Virus record (IMG/VR): IMGVR_UViG_2698536408_000010 | Length of the DNA: 5,852 nucleotides | Source: a virus | Taxonomy: Duplodnaviria; Heunggongvirae; Uroviricota; Caudoviricetes | Reading direction: 5' to 3' (one strand) | Shown here: positions 1-5,852 of the stretch, one piece after another | Layout: the number at the start of each line of letters is the position of its first letter | How positions within the stretch are numbered: position 1 is the stretch's first letter | Made by a program: the position numbers and the translations under genes | Notes under the pieces: generated by a model | The model's database searches: none | Told to the model about the DNA's origin: nothing | The model's input: the letters and a program-made list of their open reading frames with translations, nothing else

Positions 1-2
1 TC

Positions 3-417
3 CAGTATCCGGATGGTAAGCCGCCGGTATGGGCAAAGTGTACGAAAGGTGTGTATCCGTCTTACTGGGAAGAATGGAAAAAAGTCAGGGAGGTGGTAAA
101 AGTTGCCTGTCCGGAGTGTGGCGGAAAGGGTGAGGTTTCCACCGCCTGTAAGGATTGCCGTGGGCGTGGTGTCGCCATTCATCGTGAAGAGTCGGTAAAA
201 CGTGGTATGCCTGTTATCAGAGACTGCCAGCGTTGTGGTGGTCGTGGCTATGAAAGACTACCATCAACGGAGGCATTTAATGCTATATGCGAGGTGACAA
301 ACCAGATAACACGCGCGTCATGGGAAAAAACAGTTAAGAAATTCTATGATGCGCTGGTGACTCGGTTTGATATTGAAGAAGCATGGGCTGAGCGGCAGTT
401 AAAAAAGGTAACTAGGT
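3..417 (+). CDS. Cys-rich zinc-finger protein with three CxxCxGxG (DnaJ-type) motifs; partial (open at window start, 3' end lost in N run); positional candidate for lambdoid late antiterminator Q
   Basis: The frame is open from nt 3 with no upstream stop, so the ORF is 5'-truncated. Translation contains ACPECGGKG, CKDCRGRG and CQRCGGRG. It is followed by an intrinsic terminator, then a methyltransferase and a tRNA-Ile/tRNA-Arg cluster, as downstream of Q in Stx-type phages. The tail after the N run (GRFMPDVRR...) reads through the terminator and is not counted. Confidence 0.5.
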
Positions 418-459: not shown

Positions 460-497
460 ATGGGCGTTTTATGCCTGACGTTAGAAGAGTTTCTACA

Positions 498-520
498 ACC
501 CGCCGCCGAGCGGGTTTTTT
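498..520 (+). terminator. Rho-independent terminator (stem acccgc/gcgggt, 6-nt loop, T6 tract)
   Basis: Perfect 6-bp GC-rich stem 498-503/510-515 followed by tttttt (515-520). Confidence 0.7.
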
Positions 521-640
521 ATGACTGAAATCGCGTCAGTACAGTAAACGCGCTGGTGGCGGTGAATACCTGTCTTTCAGCTTGCTGGCTTTTTCGACAA
601 GAGTTATTGGTGTGTCACGTTAACCGGAAAAGGAAAAGAC

Positions 641-838
641 ATGCTAAAACAGCAGGATATGACAGAAACCGCCAGAGTGGTGTTTAATGAATTAAGCGTT
701 ACCGAACCGGCGACAGTCGGGGAGATAGCGCAGAATACTTACCTTTCACGCGAACGCTGCCAGTTAATACTGACCCAGCTGGTTATGGCGGGTCTGGCAG
801 ACTATCAGTTCGGTTGTTACAGACGCCTTCCGCAGTGA
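641..838 (+). CDS. Small (65 aa) hypothetical protein with predicted helix-turn-helix-like segment
   Basis: ATG at 641 preceded by aaggaaaag (SD-like) 6 nt upstream; segment ATVGEIAQNTYLSRERCQLILTQLVMAGL resembles an HTH/winged-helix; stop codon lies inside a terminator hairpin. Confidence 0.6.
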   Translation: MLKQQDMTETARVVFNELSVTEPATVGEIAQNTYLSRERCQLILTQLVMAGLADYQFGCYRRLPQ

Positions 839-848
839 AGGCTTTTTT
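825..848 (+). terminator. Rho-independent terminator overlapping the stop codon of the 65-aa ORF
   Basis: Stem gccttc (825-830) / gaaggc (837-842), loop cgcagt, followed by tttttt (843-848). Confidence 0.65.
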
Positions 849-865
849 ATTTGTGGTAAATGGGC

Positions 866-896
866 GGCTGGTGGGTGTTAGGGGCACCCACCAGCC
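866..896 (+). other. Perfect 12-bp GC-rich stem-loop without U tract
   Basis: ggctggtgggtg (866-877) pairs with cacccaccagcc (885-896), 7-nt loop ttagggg; no T run on either strand. Confidence 0.5.
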
Positions 897-988
897 ATCT
901 GCTCATGCGTTGGGTTCACAAGCAAACCTCAGGCCCACTGCTTTGCGCAAAAGCAGAATGAGCCTATCAGAGACAGGCTTAATGATCC

Positions 989-2047
989 ATGCTTAATACT
1001 GTAAAAATATCCAGTTGTGAGTTAATCAACGCCGACTGCCTGGAATTTATCCGGTCGTTACCCGAAAATTCTGTTGACCTGATAGTCACGGACCCGCCGT
1101 ACTTTAAAGTGAAGCCTGAGGGCTGGGATAACCAGTGGAAGGGCGACGATGATTACCTGAAGTGGCTGGACCAGTGTCTGGCGCAGTTCTGGCGGGTGCT
1201 GAAACCTGCCGGAAGTCTTTACCTGTTCTGTGGTCATCGCCTGGCATCTGATATCGAAATCATGATGCGTGAACGCTTCAGTGTGCTGAACCATATTATC
1301 TGGGCGAAGCCGTCCGGACGCTGGAACGGATGCAACAAGGAAAGCCTGCGGGCGTATTTCCCCGCCACAGAGCGCATTCTGTTCGCGGAACATTATCAGG
1401 GGCCGTATCGTCCGAAAGATGCCGGGTATGCGGCGAAGGGCAGTGCACTGAAACAGCATGTGATGGCCCCGCTGATTTCTTACTTTCGTGATGCGCGAGC
1501 TGCCCTGGGGATAACGGCAAAACAGATTGCAGATGCCACAGGAAAGAAAAACATGGTGTCGCACTGGTTCAGTGCCGGTCAGTGGCAGTTGCCGAATGAA
1601 AGCGATTATCTGAAATTACAGGCGCTGTTTGCCCGGGTGGCAGAAGAGAAGCATCGGCGTGGTGAACTGGAAAAGCTCCACCACCAGCTGGTGGATACGT
1701 ATACCTCACTGAACCGGCAGTATGCGGAGCTGCTGAGTGAATATAAACATCTGCGGCGGTATTTTGGCGTGACGGTGCAGGTGCCGTATACCGATGTGTG
1801 GACGCATAAACCGGTGCAGTTCTATCCCGGGAAACATCCGTGCGAAAAACCGGCAGAAATGCTGCAGCAGATAATCAGCGCTAGCAGTCGTCCGGGTGAC
1901 CTGATTGCAGATTTTTTCATGGGGTTGGGTTCGACAGTGAAAGCGGCACTGGCGCTCGGGCGTCGTGCAATTGGCGTTGAGCTGGAGACTGAACGTTTTG
2001 AGCAGACGGTTCGGGAAGTACAGGATTTAGTCAGCCAGAACGGATGA
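989..2047 (+). CDS. Beta-class (motif IV before motif I) N6-adenine DNA methyltransferase, CcrM/HinfI-like, apparently orphan
   Basis: DPPY motif at aa 35-38 (nt 1091-1102) after NADCLEF...LPENSVDLIVTDPPY; C-terminal HPCEKPAEMLQQIISASSRPGDLIADFFMGLGST (HPxxKP plus FxGxG AdoMet motif I). 352-aa ORF. Start codon uncertain (weak SD before ATG 989). No restriction endonuclease gene nearby. Confidence 0.85.
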   Translation: MLNTVKISSCELINADCLEFIRSLPENSVDLIVTDPPYFKVKPEGWDNQWKGDDDYLKWLDQCLAQFWRVLKPAGSLYLFCGHRLASDIEIMMRERFSVLNHIIWAKPSGRWNGCNKESLRAYFPATERILFAEHYQGPYRPKDAGYAAKGSALKQHVMAPLISYFRDARAALGITAKQIADATGKKNMVSHWFSAGQWQLPNESDYLKLQALFARVAEEKHRRGELEKLHHQLVDTYTSLNRQYAELLSEYKHLRRYFGVTVQVPYTDVWTHKPVQFYPGKHPCEKPAEMLQQIISASSRPGDLIADFFMGLGSTVKAALALGRRAIGVELETERFEQTVREVQDLVSQNG

Positions 2048-2087
2048 TATTGAAGAATTAATTACGCGTCGTTATTATGCGGCTCCC

Positions 2088-2163
2088 GGCCCTTTAGCTC
2101 AGTGGTGAGAGCGAGCGACTCATAATCGCCAGGTCGCTGGTTCAAATCCAGCAAGGGCCACCA
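2088..2163 (+). tRNA. ileZ: tRNA-Ile2 (anticodon CAU, lysidine type; ileX/ileZ-like), 76 nt with encoded CCA
   Basis: Cloverleaf: acceptor GGCCCTT/AAGGGCC, D-arm GCTC..GAGC, anticodon loop CTCATAA, T-loop TTCAAAT, 3' ACCA. Close to E. coli ileX as recalled from memory. Met versus Ile2 cannot be distinguished from the anticodon alone. Confidence 0.85.
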
Positions 2164-2263
2164 TCACAAACCGCCATTAGCTTATCAGGAAGAGCAGACG
2201 ACACGATAACAGGGTTGTTGGTGCGGGGGCGGGTCCCCGATGGCGGTCCATTATCGGTATTCA

Positions 2264-2340
2264 GCGTTGTTAGCTCAGCCGGACAGAGCAATTGCCTTCT
2301 AAGCAATCGGTCACTGGTTCGAATCCAGTACAACGCGCCA
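2264..2340 (+). tRNA. tRNA-Arg (anticodon UCU, reads AGA/AGG), 77 nt with encoded CCA
   Basis: Acceptor GCGTTGT/ACAACGC, D-arm GCTC..GAGC, anticodon stem ATTGC/GCAAT with loop CTTCTAA, T-loop TTCGAAT, discriminator G then CCA. Confidence 0.88.
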
Positions 2341-2354
2341 CACTTATTTTCCCT

Positions 2355-2380
2355 GGCTCGCTTTTGCGGGCCTTTTTTTT
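2355..2380 (+). terminator. Rho-independent terminator after the tRNA pair
   Basis: Stem ggctcgc/gcgggcc (one G-U), tttt loop, followed by T8 (2373-2380). Confidence 0.7.
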
Positions 2381-2598
2381 AAATGTCTCACAATTCAGAC
2401 GGTTGACAGTTGTCTGTTTTGCGGGGAGTTTGTTAAAAGAAACTGGCATGGTGAATCCCCCTGTGCGGAGGGGCAATCAGCGAGTAGGTATATGGGATAA
2501 TCGCGGATTCAGGTGCTGGTACTGAATTCACCGGGAGGCACCCGGCATCATGCAATGGCACATAGCGCCACTCTCCAGCCCTCTCCGGAGGGGCTTTT
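2376..2598 (+). repeat. R1: ~220-bp structured noncoding module, copy 1 (near-identical to 4836-5060)
   Basis: Shares about 215 bp with copy 2, with about 5 differences. Contains TTGACA (2403-2408), several short GC stems (cccct..agggg, ccggg..cccgg) and a terminal hairpin ccctc/gaggg followed by tttt (2579-2598). Small ORFs inside do not keep frame between copies. Confidence 0.75.
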
Positions 2599-2827
2599 CT
2601 GTGCCGGATACATCACAGTTTCTGGAACCTTAGGTACTACAGTATCAGTCAGGGTGCTATATTTTCAGATGTGATGAAAGCCTGTCAGCAGGCAGGGCGT
2701 ATCGGAAATGACCCAGTAGAGAAAACGTTGACTCAGATACCGGTGCTGAGTTACCGGGAAACCGGCATCACATGACCGCTATCCTGAGGTGTACTGGCAA
2801 TAGCGGACACTACCATTTGTTCTTTTT

Positions 2828-3646
2828 TTAAGCAGCCATCTGATGATATTTTTCCCTGAAGGCTGCCGGGGAGATATTCCCCAGACGAGAGTGACGACGC
2901 TGACGATTGTAGAAAATCTCAATGTATTCCCGTATTACTGAGATGGCTTCATCCCGGTTATTAAAACGATAGTGGCTCAGGCTCTCATTTTTCAGCGTTC
3001 CCCAGAAGCTTTCCATCGGAGCGTTGTCGTAACAGTTACCTTTACGCGACATTGATGTTTTCAGACCAGACTGCTCCTGTATGACCCGGTAATCGTATGC
3101 GCAGTACTGTGAACCTCGATCAGAGTGGTGGATTAGCCCGGCAGGTGGGCGCTGGCTCCTGAGCGCCATAAACAGGGCTTTACCTGTCAGCTCTTTTGTC
3201 ATGCGCTCTCCCATGGCGTAGCCGACAATTTCGCACGTATAAACATCTTTGATGCCAGCGAGGTACAACCATCCCTCCTGTGTGGCAACATACGTCAGGT
3301 CCGCCACCCAGACCTGATTTGGTGCTGTAGGAGCGAACGTCTGGTTCAGCAGATTTGGCGCAACTGGCAGATTGTGGTTCGAGTTCGTAGTCGCTCTGAA
3401 CTTGCGTTTCTGCTTACAGCGTAGCCTTAGCTCCTTACGAAGACGTGCCAGTCGGTCACGACCAACGATGATGCCATTCTCTGCCAGCTCCGTCTGGAGC
3501 CGCCGGGTTCCATATGTTTCGCGAGTGCGGATATGTGCCACCTTAATCTCCAGTTTTAGCCGCTCATCACTTTGTTTTCTGTCTGAGGGTTCATGCTGTA
3601 CCCAGTTGTAATAACCGCTCCTGGATACACCAAATACCTGACACAT
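2828..3646 (-). CDS. IS3-family transposase OrfB (DDE integrase catalytic domain); in vivo made as OrfAB by -1 frameshift
   Basis: 272-aa ORF with HHSDRGSQY, MSRKGNCYDNAPMESFW and YNRQRRHSRLGNISP motifs typical of IS3-family OrfB. The frame stays open upstream to the slippery site near 3727-3733. Confidence 0.9.
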   Translation of the reverse strand: MCQVFGVSRSGYYNWVQHEPSDRKQSDERLKLEIKVAHIRTRETYGTRRLQTELAENGIIVGRDRLARLRKELRLRCKQKRKFRATTNSNHNLPVAPNLLNQTFAPTAPNQVWVADLTYVATQEGWLYLAGIKDVYTCEIVGYAMGERMTKELTGKALFMALRSQRPPAGLIHHSDRGSQYCAYDYRVIQEQSGLKTSMSRKGNCYDNAPMESFWGTLKNESLSHYRFNNRDEAISVIREYIEIFYNRQRRHSRLGNISPAAFREKYHQMAA

Positions 3647-3681
3647 CGCTTCAATGGGAAATTGTTGTCGCCATTGTTCGA

Positions 3682-3912
3682 TTAACGCGTATTTTTCAGC
3701 GACTCCTGTGCAAAATACGCTGTTGCTTTTTTTAATATATCTCGCTCAAGGCGAGCTTCATTTAACGCCTTACGCAGTTGCAGAATTTCAGATTCCAGTT
3801 CAGCCACCGTGCGGGAACCAGGAGTACCGAGCCCTTTTCTGGCGGCGGTAACCCATTGTCCTAAAGTGCCTTCAGGAAGAGATAATCGGGAAGCGCCTTC
3901 ACTGATCGAAAG
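3682..3912 (-). CDS. IS3-family transposase OrfA (HTH/leucine-zipper part), N-terminus lost in N run
   Basis: Translation ...TVAELESEILQLRKALNEARLERDILKKATAYFAQESLKNTR resembles IS911-type OrfA C-terminus. The tracked ORF extends through the Ns into antisense tRNA sequence, which is artefactual. Confidence 0.75.
   Translation of the reverse strand, partial: LSISEGASRLSLPEGTLGQWVTAARKGLGTPGSRTVAELESEILQLRKALNEARLERDILKKATAYFAQESLKNTR
3727..3733 (-). other. Programmed -1 ribosomal frameshift heptamer A_AAA_AAA linking OrfA and OrfB
   Basis: Seven T on + strand (seven A on coding strand) in the OrfA frame within ...DILKKATAYF; shifting -1 here joins onto ...LIEQWRQQFPIEAMCQVFGVSRSGYYNW. Confidence 0.6.
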
Positions 3913-3923
3913 NNNNNNNNNNN
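3913..3923. other. Assembly gap or masked bases (11 N)
   Basis: Run of n; IS sequence on one side, tRNA-flanking sequence on the other, so true adjacency is unknown. Confidence 0.95.
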
Positions 3924-3929
3924 GCTCCC

Positions 3930-4005
3930 GGCCCTTTAGCTCAGTGGTGAGAGCGAGCGACTCATAATCGCCAGGTCGCTGGTTCAAATCCAGCAAGGGC
4001 CACCA
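3930..4005 (+). tRNA. ileZ: tRNA-Ile2 (CAU), second copy, identical to 2088-2163
   Basis: Same 76-nt sequence as copy 1, including 6 nt of upstream flank (gctccc). Confidence 0.85.
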
Positions 4006-4105
4006 TCACAAACCGCCATTAGCTTATCAGGAAGAGCAGACGACACGATAACAGGGTTGTTGGTGCGGGGGCGGGTCCCCGATGGCGGTCCATTATCGGT
4101 ATTCA

Positions 4106-4182
4106 GCGTTGTTAGCTCAGCCGGACAGAGCAATTGCCTTCTAAGCAATCGGTCACTGGTTCGAATCCAGTACAGCGCGCCA
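4106..4182 (+). tRNA. tRNA-Arg (UCU), second copy, one substitution in acceptor stem
   Basis: Identical to 2264-2340 except A to G at 4175 (versus 2333), making a U4-G69 wobble; downstream flank differs and has no terminator. Confidence 0.85.
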
Positions 4183-4292
4183 TATTCATTCTTCCAGATT
4201 CCTTCCGGCAGAGCCTTATACTGAAATATACCTGGCTCAGGATATTGTTGAAAATATTTTATGTTTGTCAAAAATAAAAGTTCTGTTAAGTA

Positions 4293-4646
4293 TTGATTGA
4301 GTGTTTGTTATACGGTCTAATGGTTTTTTCAGCATTAAATATTTATCATTCATATGGTGTGGGTAGAGTGAATATTGATGAGGCGTCGGGGTGTTTCATC
4401 CTTAGGCAGCGTATTGATATAGTCAATGCAGCACGAGCAAAGGCCTTCAGCCGTTTGACAGTTTTGTTCTGTACTCCTGATCGTCTTTCGGGAAGAGACG
4501 TTATTATTCTGAATAGTGATGCTATACAGAGGGTTTGCGATGAGTTCATGGTTGCTAATTCAGAATTATTTGCTCTTGTTCAGGAGTACAACAGAATAGC
4601 CAGGACCTGTGGTATGGATGAACTTCGGATTACTCATCTGGGGTAG
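4293..4646 (+). CDS. Hypothetical protein (up to 117 aa), AT-rich cargo gene rich in AGA/AGG/ATA codons
   Basis: A 354-nt open frame in AT-rich DNA is unlikely by chance. 6 of 11 Arg codons are AGA/AGG and 3 Ile codons are ATA. Start is uncertain (TTG 4293, ATG 4320 or GTG 4367) and no clear SD is present. No family recognised. Confidence 0.45.
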   Translation: MIECLLYGLMVFSALNIYHSYGVGRVNIDEASGCFILRQRIDIVNAARAKAFSRLTVLFCTPDRLSGRDVIILNSDAIQRVCDEFMVANSELFALVQEYNRIARTCGMDELRITHLG

Positions 4647-4726
4647 ATACATATCTGGATTATCACCTGTTACGGTAAAAAGTGATTGCTTACTGTTTTT
4701 GTGAATGGCATTGCAGCAGCCGGATA

Positions 4727-4813
4727 ATGTCAGTGCTGGCTGACGGTGTGCTGGTGGCGGGTGTGGTGGTTGTTGCTTTCCCGTTGCTGAAAAAGAAAAC
4801 GCCAGACTGTTAG
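4727..4813 (+). CDS. Possible small hydrophobic peptide (28 aa, MSVLADGVLVAGVVVVAFPLLKKKTPDC)
   Basis: ATG-initiated ORF with a single predicted TM-like segment and KKK tail; GC-rich island within AT-rich DNA; weak SD (gga 3-5 nt upstream). Could also be a gene remnant. Confidence 0.25.
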   Translation: MSVLADGVLVAGVVVVAFPLLKKKTPDC

Positions 4814-4835
4814 CCGGGTATCAGTTAGCGGGAGA

Positions 4836-5060
4836 AATTTTTAAATACTTCACAATTCAGGCGGTTGACTGTTGTCTGGTTTGCGGGGAGTTTGTTAAAA
4901 GAAACTGGCATGGTGAATCCCCCTGTGCGGAGGGGCAATCAGCGAGTAGGTATATGGGATAATCGCGGATTCAGGTGCTGGTACTGAATTCACCGGGAGG
5001 CACCCGGCACCATGCAATGGCACATAGCGCCACTCTCCAGCCCCTCTCCGGAGGGGCTGT
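4836..5060 (+). repeat. R2: ~220-bp structured noncoding module, copy 2 (near-identical to 2376-2598)
   Basis: Same module as R1 with TTGACT in place of TTGACA and one extra C in the terminal hairpin (7-bp stem gcccctc/gaggggc, 5040-5057). Confidence 0.75.
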
Positions 5061-5076
5061 TTATATTGATTTTGTC
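5040..5076 (+). terminator. Terminator-like hairpin at the end of R2
   Basis: 7-bp GC stem with tccg loop followed by tgtttatattgattttg (T-rich but interrupted). Confidence 0.5.
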
Positions 5077-5090
5077 AGATGTGAGTAAAC

Positions 5091-5124
5091 TCCTTATGGA
5101 CTTTGTTGTTTTAGTCCATAAGGA
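5091..5124. other. Perfect 12-bp inverted repeat spanning the stop codon of the minus-strand 111-aa ORF
   Basis: tccttatggact (5091-5102) pairs with agtccataagga (5113-5124), 10-nt loop. It lies between the convergent R2 module and the minus-strand ORF. Confidence 0.5.
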
Positions 5125-5429
5125 CATATTTGCAGAGTGCAACGGTTATTAAAGCATTCATTCAATACGTTATCTGTATTTGTAGGGCATTCCTGGCTAT
5201 TTTTGATTGAATTCCAGAATGTTTTATTGAATGGTACTACGTTGTAAATGGTTACAGGTAGCACTTTGTTATTGAGCATGATGCCTGTGTGAGTCAGTGT
5301 AAATATACTTTCAGGAGGTAAGAAAGCATCCGATTGATACCAGATTATTAATTTTATTTTACTCCATATGACTGAAAAAGATATTCCGCATGATGGCTGG
5401 ATAACTGTATCAATCACAATCCACTTCAT
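5094..5429 (-). CDS. Hypothetical Cys-containing protein (111 aa), AT-rich cargo gene
   Basis: ATG at 5429 (minus) preceded by aaggaaa 5 nt upstream (strong SD). At least six ATA Ile codons. C-terminal region has 5 Cys ([26 protein letters not shown]). No family recognised. Confidence 0.6.
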
Positions 5430-5689
5430 TTAGTTTCCTTGTTTATGCCTTGCTGGTGATGTTCTGAAAAGTATAAATGATATTTTTGAATGTAAACCAT
5501 AGAGCAGAATTATTTTTCTGATGTTGTTTATTGTTTATTTAAATGCAGGGTGGTTTATATCTCGTCTTGTAGTTTATCCATGCATATCTGCTTGATAATC
5601 AGGTTTTTATTTAAGGTATGGTTTTGTGTTTTTTCTGTATTACATGTCAGGTATTTTAAAGAATTATTTTTCAGATGGTGGAAAGAACC

Positions 5690-5816
5690 ATGGCATTTAA
5701 ACACTATGATGTTGTCAGGGCGGCGCCGCCGTCAGATCTTGCGGAAAAGCTGACACATAAACTGAAAGAGGGCTGGCAGCCGTTTGGTAGTCCGGTGGCC
5801 ATAACCCCTTATACCC
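5690..5816 (+). CDS. N-terminal 42 codons of a small lambdoid-prophage protein (MAFKHYDVVRAAPPSDLAEKL..., possibly DUF1737-like), interrupted by IS end
   Basis: ATG 5690 with ggtggaaag SD-like sequence 6 nt upstream. The frame runs without a stop into the IS terminal sequence starting at 5817. The family assignment is from memory and tentative. Confidence 0.55.
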
Positions 5817-5852
5817 TGAGGTGTACTGGCAATAGCGGACACTACCATTTGT
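5817..5852 (-). mobile_element. IS3-family terminal end (second copy of the end seen at 2785-2820), continues beyond window
   Basis: 36 nt identical to 2785-2820 (tgaggtgtactggcaatagcggacactaccatttgt), same orientation. Confidence 0.8.

Follow-up and report, generated by a model that had tools for sequence, protein, structure and literature searches.

The window analysed here is a 5,852-nt stretch from the IMG/VR virus record IMGVR_UViG_2698536408_000010 (Caudoviricetes), in which one and the same end of the insertion sequence (IS) IS600 occurs twice, at 2785 (junction 1) and at 5817 (junction 2). A preliminary description had taken the two copies as possible borders of a composite-transposon-like unit carrying a tRNA pair and further cargo genes. 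Based on comparison with related assemblies and with complete Escherichia coli genomes, the window very probably represents two independent IS600 insertions in two paralogous defective lambdoid late regions, which were mis-scaffolded in series. The apparent unit 'IS, tRNA pair, cargo, IS' is most likely a scaffolding artefact and not a composite transposon, and the source is most likely a short-read draft scaffold of an Escherichia strain of the Shigella or enteroinvasive E. coli (EIEC) type. The IS600 element is already known, and both insertions are ordinary ones.

Identity of the Repeated End

The 36-mer TGAGGTGTACTGGCAATAGCGGACACTACCATTTGT is present in exactly two copies, at 2785–2820 and 5817–5852, both on the + strand, and had no match in any of 200 shuffled sequences (0/200), even with up to 3 mismatches tolerated. 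The repeat finder stretched the match to 41 nt with 1 mismatch, because the 5 bases of the left flank are also alike (TATCC vs TACCC). From 2785 the IS body runs rightward for 1128 nt and ends at 3912; this segment is 99.9% identical over the 1128 nt to the 'IS3-like element IS600 family transposase' annotated in thousands of E. coli records. The repeated 36-mer is the right inverted repeat (IRR) end of IS600, an IS3-family element of 1264 bp, and the IRR TGAGGTGTACTGG... is the same in the window copy and in annotated IS600. The preliminary description had thus recognized both the identical end and its family correctly. It had also stated that the IS body extends rightward at both sites; as both junctions are IRR ends, the body does point right at each of them, with just 36 nt of it inside the window at 5817. 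The IS600 features of the window are as follows:

2785–3912, − strand: IS600 positions 1–1128, counted from the IRR end (99.9% identical to annotated IS600)
2828–3646, − strand: IS600 orfB (NCBIfam transpos_IS3, 334 bits, at a cut-off of 160 bits)
3682–3912, − strand: partial IS600 orfA (profile match)
3726–3733, − strand: A7G slippery run, the frameshift site (sequence)
5817–5852, − strand: IS600 positions 1–36 (IRR end), adjoining the junction-2 flank (repeat finder and pattern count)

Full IS600 copies from two genomes (L003 and L004) define the element as 1264 bp long, with the IRR TGAGGTGTAC... and the left inverted repeat (IRL) ...GGCTACCTCA. Both ends of the terminal inverted repeats (TG...CA) are present in these two copies and in a sibling copy at junction 1, whereas the window has only the IRR, at 2785 and 5817: its first copy stops at a run of N and lacks the last 136 nt including the IRL, and its second stops at the window end. 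Besides nucleotide identity, the assignment rests on an IS3-type DDE transposase encoded by orfA and orfB with a −1 frameshift, which is annotated as a programmed frameshift by RefSeq in identical IS600 copies. IS3-family elements insert by a copy-out/paste-in route with a 3-bp target duplication; IS600 moves in this way by means of an OrfAB transposase produced by −1 frameshifting, leaving a 3-bp duplication behind. Such duplications were found at copies outside the window, as TCC on both sides of an IS600 at the identical junction 1 and as AAC/AAC around the copy in L003.

Since one IS has one IRR, the two unlike left flanks that adjoin an IRR in the same local orientation require at least two IS copies. 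The bases directly left of the junctions, TATCC at 2780–2784 and TACCC at 5812–5816, resemble each other, while other IS600 copies examined here are preceded by CTACC, CAAAC, ATGGA and CTAAC. This likeness may reflect a weak target preference or chance (about 1–2% by chance for 4/5 bases).

Composition of the Window

The window consists of three pieces, 1–417, 460–3912 and 3924–5852, separated by two runs of N. The region corresponding to the first run measures 37 nt in N-free siblings that are 100% identical to the window on both sides of it, and 45–46 nt in E. coli 042. As the run comprises 42 N, 418–459 is a gap and not a length-preserving mask, and masks of that kind were ruled out as an account of the N runs.

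1–417, + strand: 3' part of the Q antiterminator gene, piece 1 (Pfam Antiterm PF03589, E = 6.5e-32)
418–459, no strand: run of 42 N, a scaffold gap
460–522, + strand: tR'-like terminator, common to both prophage types described below (comparison)
641–838, + strand: open reading frame (ORF) of 65 aa
989–2047, + strand: DNA methyltransferase (profile/annotation match)
2088–2163, + strand: tRNA(CAT) of the type-A piece (ARAGORN)
2264–2340, + strand: tRNA-Arg(TCT) of the type-A piece (ARAGORN)
2417–2606, + strand: STnc100-like RNA, first copy (Rfam RF02076, 123.6 bits)
2782–2784, + strand: TCC, the end of the junction-1 flank (sequence)
3913–3923, no strand: run of 11 N, by which alone the first IS copy is connected to the 'cargo'
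3930–4005, + strand: tRNA(CAT) of the type-B piece (ARAGORN)
4106–4182, + strand: tRNA-Arg of the type-B piece (ARAGORN)
4293–4646, + strand: 117-aa ORF without a Pfam or NCBIfam match
4682–4813, + strand: DUF3927 (family match)
4879–5068, + strand: STnc100-like RNA, second copy (Rfam RF02076, 132.4 bits)
5094–5429, − strand: IraM-like gene (NCBIfam PRK09919, 162 bits)

Two parts of the window are duplicated; neither these duplications nor the N runs had been mentioned in the preliminary description. The tRNA-pair segment 2082–2353 corresponds to 3924–4195, with the first 251 nt (2082–2332) exactly identical, and the STnc100 region 2363–2581 resembles 4825–5043. Both STnc100-like copies, which score far above the Rfam gathering score of 47, lie downstream of a prophage tRNA-Arg and are about 94% alike; they have in common an exact block of about 130 nt, which acts as a point of path swapping between assemblies.

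Two Types of Late Region

Without its IS end, piece 3 (3924–5816) is 99.6% identical to, and contiguous in, an E. coli 042 prophage at 2.255 Mb, where it lies between Q and holin in the order Q, tRNA-Ile, tRNA-Arg, DUF3927, IraM, DUF1737, holin, lysozyme. At a coverage of at least 80%, piece 3 is present as a contiguous segment in 863 complete E. coli genomes, and every record examined showed the native Q-to-holin context without IS600. Window 1–2784 matches another 042 prophage, at 1.418 Mb, with Q, a small ORF, DNA methyltransferase, tRNAs and, further on, DUF1737-esterase and holin; 460–2784 is 94% identical to it. The two module types are about 840 kb apart in E. coli 042. The 'cargo' thus represents the accessory genes that natively lie between Q and the lysis genes of a lambdoid prophage (type B); the left half of the window comes from a paralogous prophage with the methylase module (type A). 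Q, tR', tRNAs and accessory genes follow each other in the conserved order of a lambdoid Q-to-lysis region, collinear with the 042 prophages; holin and lysozyme lie outside the window.

The uninterrupted junction-1 site reads ...GCTATCC/TTCCAGG in 042 (the slash marks the insertion point), and neither IS600 junction was found in the 5,426 complete E. coli genomes searched, a collection without Shigella. An exact-protein look-up of the 117-aa ORF returned contigs with Q, IraM and DUF1737/holin in order wherever the contig was long enough to show neighbours. E. coli prophages commonly carry this ORF in the same place, and the majority of the contigs that contain it are only 2–5 kb long, which indicates that the locus fragments assemblies generally.

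As for the other genes of the module, the tRNA with the CAT anticodon is called 'Met' by ARAGORN and tRNA-Ile by RefSeq for the same gene; presumably it is read as Ile after lysidine modification. The gene for an IraM-type anti-adaptor (RssB/RpoS pathway), a common moron in this module, is located between STnc100 and DUF1737.

Sibling Assemblies

An exact search for either junction returned nine stretches belonging to seven isolate-derived IMG/VR records, and both junctions recur in these independent sibling assemblies. An exact degenerate pattern covering both junctions had no match in genome-contig or metagenome-contig collections. It should be noted that IMG/VR holds only regions predicted to be viral, and absence from it is weak evidence.

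The native setting of the 'cargo' is seen in sibling L006, a 6.2-kb stretch without N. It contains an inverted IS600, the nin region, Q, 37 nt, the equivalent of window 460–522, 31 nt, the equivalent of 3924–5852, and IS600; it is 100% identical to window 1–417 and to 460–522, and has 1 mismatch over 3924–5852. The true upstream neighbour of the 'cargo' in L006 is Q.

The setting of junction 1 is seen in L014 and L010, adjacent halves of one N-free 21.5-kb contig. The order is inverted IS600, nin, Q, methylase, tRNAs, STnc100, junction 1, a complete 1264-bp IS600, TCC and TTCCAGGCCC..., and the sequence past this IS600 is 99.4% identical to the type-A esterase/holin/lysozyme region of 042. As the junction-1 IS600 has its own TCC duplication in the sibling, it was inserted alone: junction 1 is a simple insertion with a TCC duplication, and its own prophage follows. 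Another complete IS600 (L014 5685–6948) was observed 3.5 kb downstream, past the lysozyme region and in the same orientation as the junction-1 copy. This third IS600 has no target duplication (AAC vs ATT), and the mismatch of its flanks suggests an IS-mediated deletion or rearrangement of late genes. It is consistent with a further, generally reasonable remark of the preliminary description, namely that IS copies could cause deletions in a prophage of this kind.

Two alleles of Q distinguish the prophage types. C344/T362 was found in every N-free sibling in which Q is joined directly to the tRNA pair, and T344/C362 in every N-free sibling in which Q is joined to the methylase gene. The former allele is that of the window, whose Q is 100% identical to the tRNA-linked Q of L005, L006 and L013a and has 2 mismatches to the methylase-linked Q of L009, L010, L011 and L013b. 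With a type-B allele of Q, piece 1 belongs with piece 3, so the 42-N gap also appears to join different prophages.

Between window 460–3912 and the L014/L010 contig, mismatches are confined to position 472 and to the tRNA spacer 2169–2264. In the window, this methylase-linked inter-tRNA spacer is the same as the type-B spacer 4011–4106, and the N-free type-A siblings differ from it at 26 sites. The type-B spacer in piece 2 may be due to an assembly path error or to gene conversion between the prophages. Sibling L011 follows type A as far as the spacer, beyond which it matches window 4107–5852, with junction 2, exactly, whereas L005 and L008 are of type B up to STnc100 and then of type A with junction 1. 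What sets the sibling assemblies apart is solely which path they follow through the exact repeats of the tRNA pair and STnc100.

In two sibling scaffolds, the junction-1 piece is followed by a gap of 11 or 12 nt at the same IS position and then by the junction-2 piece, which starts at the equivalent of window 5046 or 5042, that is, at the end of the STnc100 repeat and not at 3924. The gap lengths derive from contig coordinates, and the gaps are presumably Ns, the loci being split there. The sibling pieces stop at IS600 position 1138, directly before an A/G site that varies among IS600 copies, which suggests that the IS piece is a collapsed consensus of all of the IS600 copies.

L005 passes through a complete IS600 at junction 1 and, on the IRL side of this copy, into sequence (L005 4351–4796) that is 100% identical to ospC4 of pINV-type virulence plasmids. 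This link places the lineage within Shigella/EIEC and demonstrates that the assemblies bridge unrelated replicons through IS600. In L008, the start of the type-B tRNA-pair piece is shifted upstream by 28 nt and falls within the type-B linker between Q and the tRNAs, not within IS600. L008 also carries an IS4-like IS421 element (2491–3868; 99.8% identity) within the type-A tRNA spacer, beside a single-N join. Single-N joins between successive paralogous late-region pieces are located at L005 4797, L008 2490, and L013 2769 and 6012. The order in L013 is Q to tRNA, then Q to methylase, then methylase to junction 1, and past the N at 2769 the next piece opens with the bases found at window position 1.

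Truncation of the DUF1737 Gene

5690–5815, + strand: codons 1–42 of the DUF1737 gene (Pfam, E = 1.6e-15)
5814–5816, + strand: CCC, predicted target site (predicted duplication at junction 2)

The preliminary description proposed that a small prophage gene is cut after codon 42 at junction 2, and comparison with uninterrupted homologues, which it had suggested as a check, bears this out. Intact DUF1737 homologues of 62 aa read ...ITPYTLMQAIAAEG..., continuing ...TPYTLMQAIAAEG..., while the window gene reads ...ITPYT L/RCTGNS (the slash marks the divergence) and runs into IS600. The first 42 of 62 codons are left before the cut; that codon 43 still reads CTG (Leu) is a coincidence, the IS beginning with TG. 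Junction 2 is also present in L006, L007, L011 and L012. The far side of the insertion, searched for as the IS600 IRL followed by NNN and TGATGCAGGCG, had no match in IMG/VR, so the CCC duplication stays a prediction. A search for target duplications, likewise suggested earlier, was successful at junction 1, through the sibling, and yielded no partner at junction 2.

The Join between IS600 and the tRNA Pair

The preliminary description placed the tRNA pair and the cargo between two directly oriented IS copies. The order is contradicted by the siblings, which have Q upstream of the 'cargo', and the only link in the window is the 11-N gap: IS600 stops at its position 1128, 11 N follow, and piece 3 then opens with GCTCCCGGCCC... 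at 3924 (GCTCCCGGCCCTTTAGC). The 251-nt exact copy of 2082–2332 begins precisely at position 3924. Alignment with both 042 prophages demonstrated that the ~30 nt upstream of the repeat start are similar but mismatched between the prophage types, and in all phage contexts the bases directly before it differ; the exact identity of the paralogues begins at 3924, a typical site for an assembly graph to branch. Piece 3 has 36 nt of IS at its right end and none at its left end, where there is no IS600 IRL sequence. The IS600 IRL within 0–30 nt of the tRNA-pair start had no match in IMG/VR.

Three properties of a composite transposon were considered, namely contiguity, a target duplication at the outer ends, and occurrence as a block in different contexts. 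The first IS copy is cut at 1128 by the N run, the 'cargo' starts without an IS, and the second copy is 36 nt long; the junction-1 IS has a TCC duplication of its own in the sibling; and the 'cargo' is found in its native prophage context, with no adjoining IS600 IRL in IMG/VR. The proposed composite-transposon-like unit fails in all three respects.

The window has the features of short-read drafts of IS-rich genomes with repeat-induced scaffolding errors: contig ends at repeat boundaries, a polymorphic IS site, N gaps, siblings that choose different paths, and one contig that bridges a chromosomal prophage to pINV through IS600. A plausible cause of the join at 3913–3923 is the behaviour of the scaffolder. 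The single-N joins of L005, L008 and L013 are of the SSPACE style, but the exact join in the window could not be derived from the rules of such a scaffolder, which is not claimed as its cause.

Proposed Arrangement and Alternatives

The IS identity, both junctions, the gene truncation, the positions of the gaps and the structures of the sibling contigs were observed directly; from these we infer that the genome behind the window is arranged like those of the siblings. The type-A prophage would read Q, methylase, tRNA pair, STnc100, IS600 at junction 1, and esterase/holin/lysozyme; the type-B prophage would read Q, tRNA pair, 117-aa ORF, DUF3927, STnc100, IraM, and DUF1737 with IS600 at junction 2. 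Each would carry an IS600 of its own, intergenic at junction 1 (TCC duplication) and within DUF1737 at junction 2 (predicted CCC), and both elements would separate the lysis genes from the Q-dependent late promoter. The exact repeats common to the two prophages are the end of Q with tR', the 251-nt tRNA pair, the ~130 nt of STnc100, and IS600; across such exact repeats an assembler is unable to resolve the paths. The scaffolder may then have laid the alternative branches end to end, with pieces 1 and 3 belonging together and piece 2 representing prophage A. The scaffold probably ends at 5852, together with the window.

Several observations weigh against this arrangement. It is drawn from siblings which, although 99–100% identical, represent other genomes. 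In the window and in two siblings, three independent scaffolds in all, the junction-2 piece is put right after the interior of the junction-1 IS600, a regularity for which serialization of branches by the scaffolder is a plausible explanation. Piece 2 carries the type-B tRNA spacer, which could be a real gene conversion and not a path error. Finally, the IS600 IRL followed by CCC and TGATGCAGG... was found in no collection searched, and junction 2 may not be a simple insertion.

It is unlikely that the scaffold order is real, i.e., that a direct pair of IS600 copies brackets the tRNA pair, 117-aa ORF, DUF3927, STnc100, IraM and the truncated DUF1737. Such a bracket could have arisen by IS600 transposition or by IS600–IS600 recombination between prophages, and would be composite-transposon-like or amplifiable. 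The presence of both junctions in one scaffold in the same orientation and the recurrence of the junction-2 piece after the junction-1 IS600 in the two sibling scaffolds would fit it; furthermore, direct IS600 copies (the junction-1 copy and the third copy) do bracket esterase/holin/lysozyme in the N-free sibling contig, and the amplification or deletion of IS600-flanked stx reported for Shigella dysenteriae 1 offers a known precedent. However, the join is a run of N, the 'cargo' begins without an IS600 IRL although its other end keeps 36 nt of the IS, and that beginning coincides with the boundary of an internal exact repeat. An IS600 IRL lying 30 nt or less from the tRNA-pair start was found in no IMG/VR contig. 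In the N-free siblings, the 'cargo' is preceded by Q, and the junction-1 IS, which has a TCC duplication of its own and so was inserted alone, is followed by esterase; in the sibling scaffolds, the sequence that continues past the gap is a different one. Moreover, the Q piece with its type-B allele would have to be misplaced anyway.

Even less likely is a single late region whose two junctions are alternative states, either in a mixed population or as one IS600 with flanks that were assembled twice. The left boundary (inverted IS600 and nin) is indeed the same in type-A and type-B sibling contigs (99.7%, with differences only near Q), and several IMG/VR siblings show only one junction, although this is weak evidence for the reason given above. 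Both junctions, however, are IRR junctions with unrelated flanks and cannot be two sides of a single insertion, a reading that was rejected for this reason. The esterase/DUF1737 start is ~530 nt downstream of junction 1, whereas junction 2 is inside DUF1737; three scaffolds (the window and two siblings) contain both junctions; and the spacer, STnc100 and downstream genes have diverged in the manner of paralogous prophages, both types of which are present in E. coli 042. Least likely of all, the N runs would mask real sequence in which a deletion had joined a truncated IS600 directly to the tRNA pair. Some collections do contain masked stretches, and the 11-N run begins 10 nt before the point where the sibling pieces end; against this, siblings with 100% identity on either side of the 42-N run have 37 real nt in its place, an exact internal repeat starts with the very base that follows the 11-N run, and the sibling loci, which are also split at that IS position, continue differently.

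Significance and Comparison with Known Systems

The late operon is interrupted or burdened by an IS located between pR'/Q and the lysis cassette, and deletions can arise through the homology that several IS copies offer. Taken as two independent insertions, the IS600 copies of the window represent ordinary IS-driven prophage decay, and would help to fix the remnants in place and supply homology for later deletions. If the order of the scaffold were real, the window would hold a ~2-kb IS600-bounded unit with tRNA-Ile/tRNA-Arg, an STnc100-like small RNA and an IraM-type gene, which could amplify, be deleted or move by IS–IS recombination. In IS-rich Shigella/EIEC drafts, adjacency across N runs or collapsed IS/tRNA repeats should not be equated with genome structure, and long reads are required before an apparent 'IS, cargo, IS' unit is called a transposon.

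The Q-to-lysis moron regions of E. coli 042 correspond closely to those of the window. They have the same order at 94–99.6% identity, with Q, tR', the methylase gene present or absent, tRNA-Ile/Arg, STnc100, IraM, DUF1737 or DUF1737-esterase, and holin. Compared with IS600 of other E. coli/Shigella genomes, the IRR, orfA/orfB and A7G site are the same, as is the 3-bp duplication seen at the sibling copy, and only the extent differs (positions 1–1128 and 1–36 here). IS600 is one of five IS types that have expanded in all Shigella species, and the reference chromosomes of these species carry 229–348 IS insertions in total (PMC7373316).

A close parallel among known systems is the defective Stx prophage of S. 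dysenteriae type 1: there too, a Shigella-type host carries a decayed lambdoid prophage with IS600 copies in its Q-to-lysis part. McDonough and Butterton (1999) reportedly found stx flanked by IS600 in S. dysenteriae 1, with IS600–IS600 recombination leading to amplification or deletion. Unlike that prophage, the window has no stx genes. IS600 upstream of stx has been described in the defective prophage of S. dysenteriae 1 (PMC7819885); in the present case, bracketing by two IS600 copies is contradicted by the sibling contigs.

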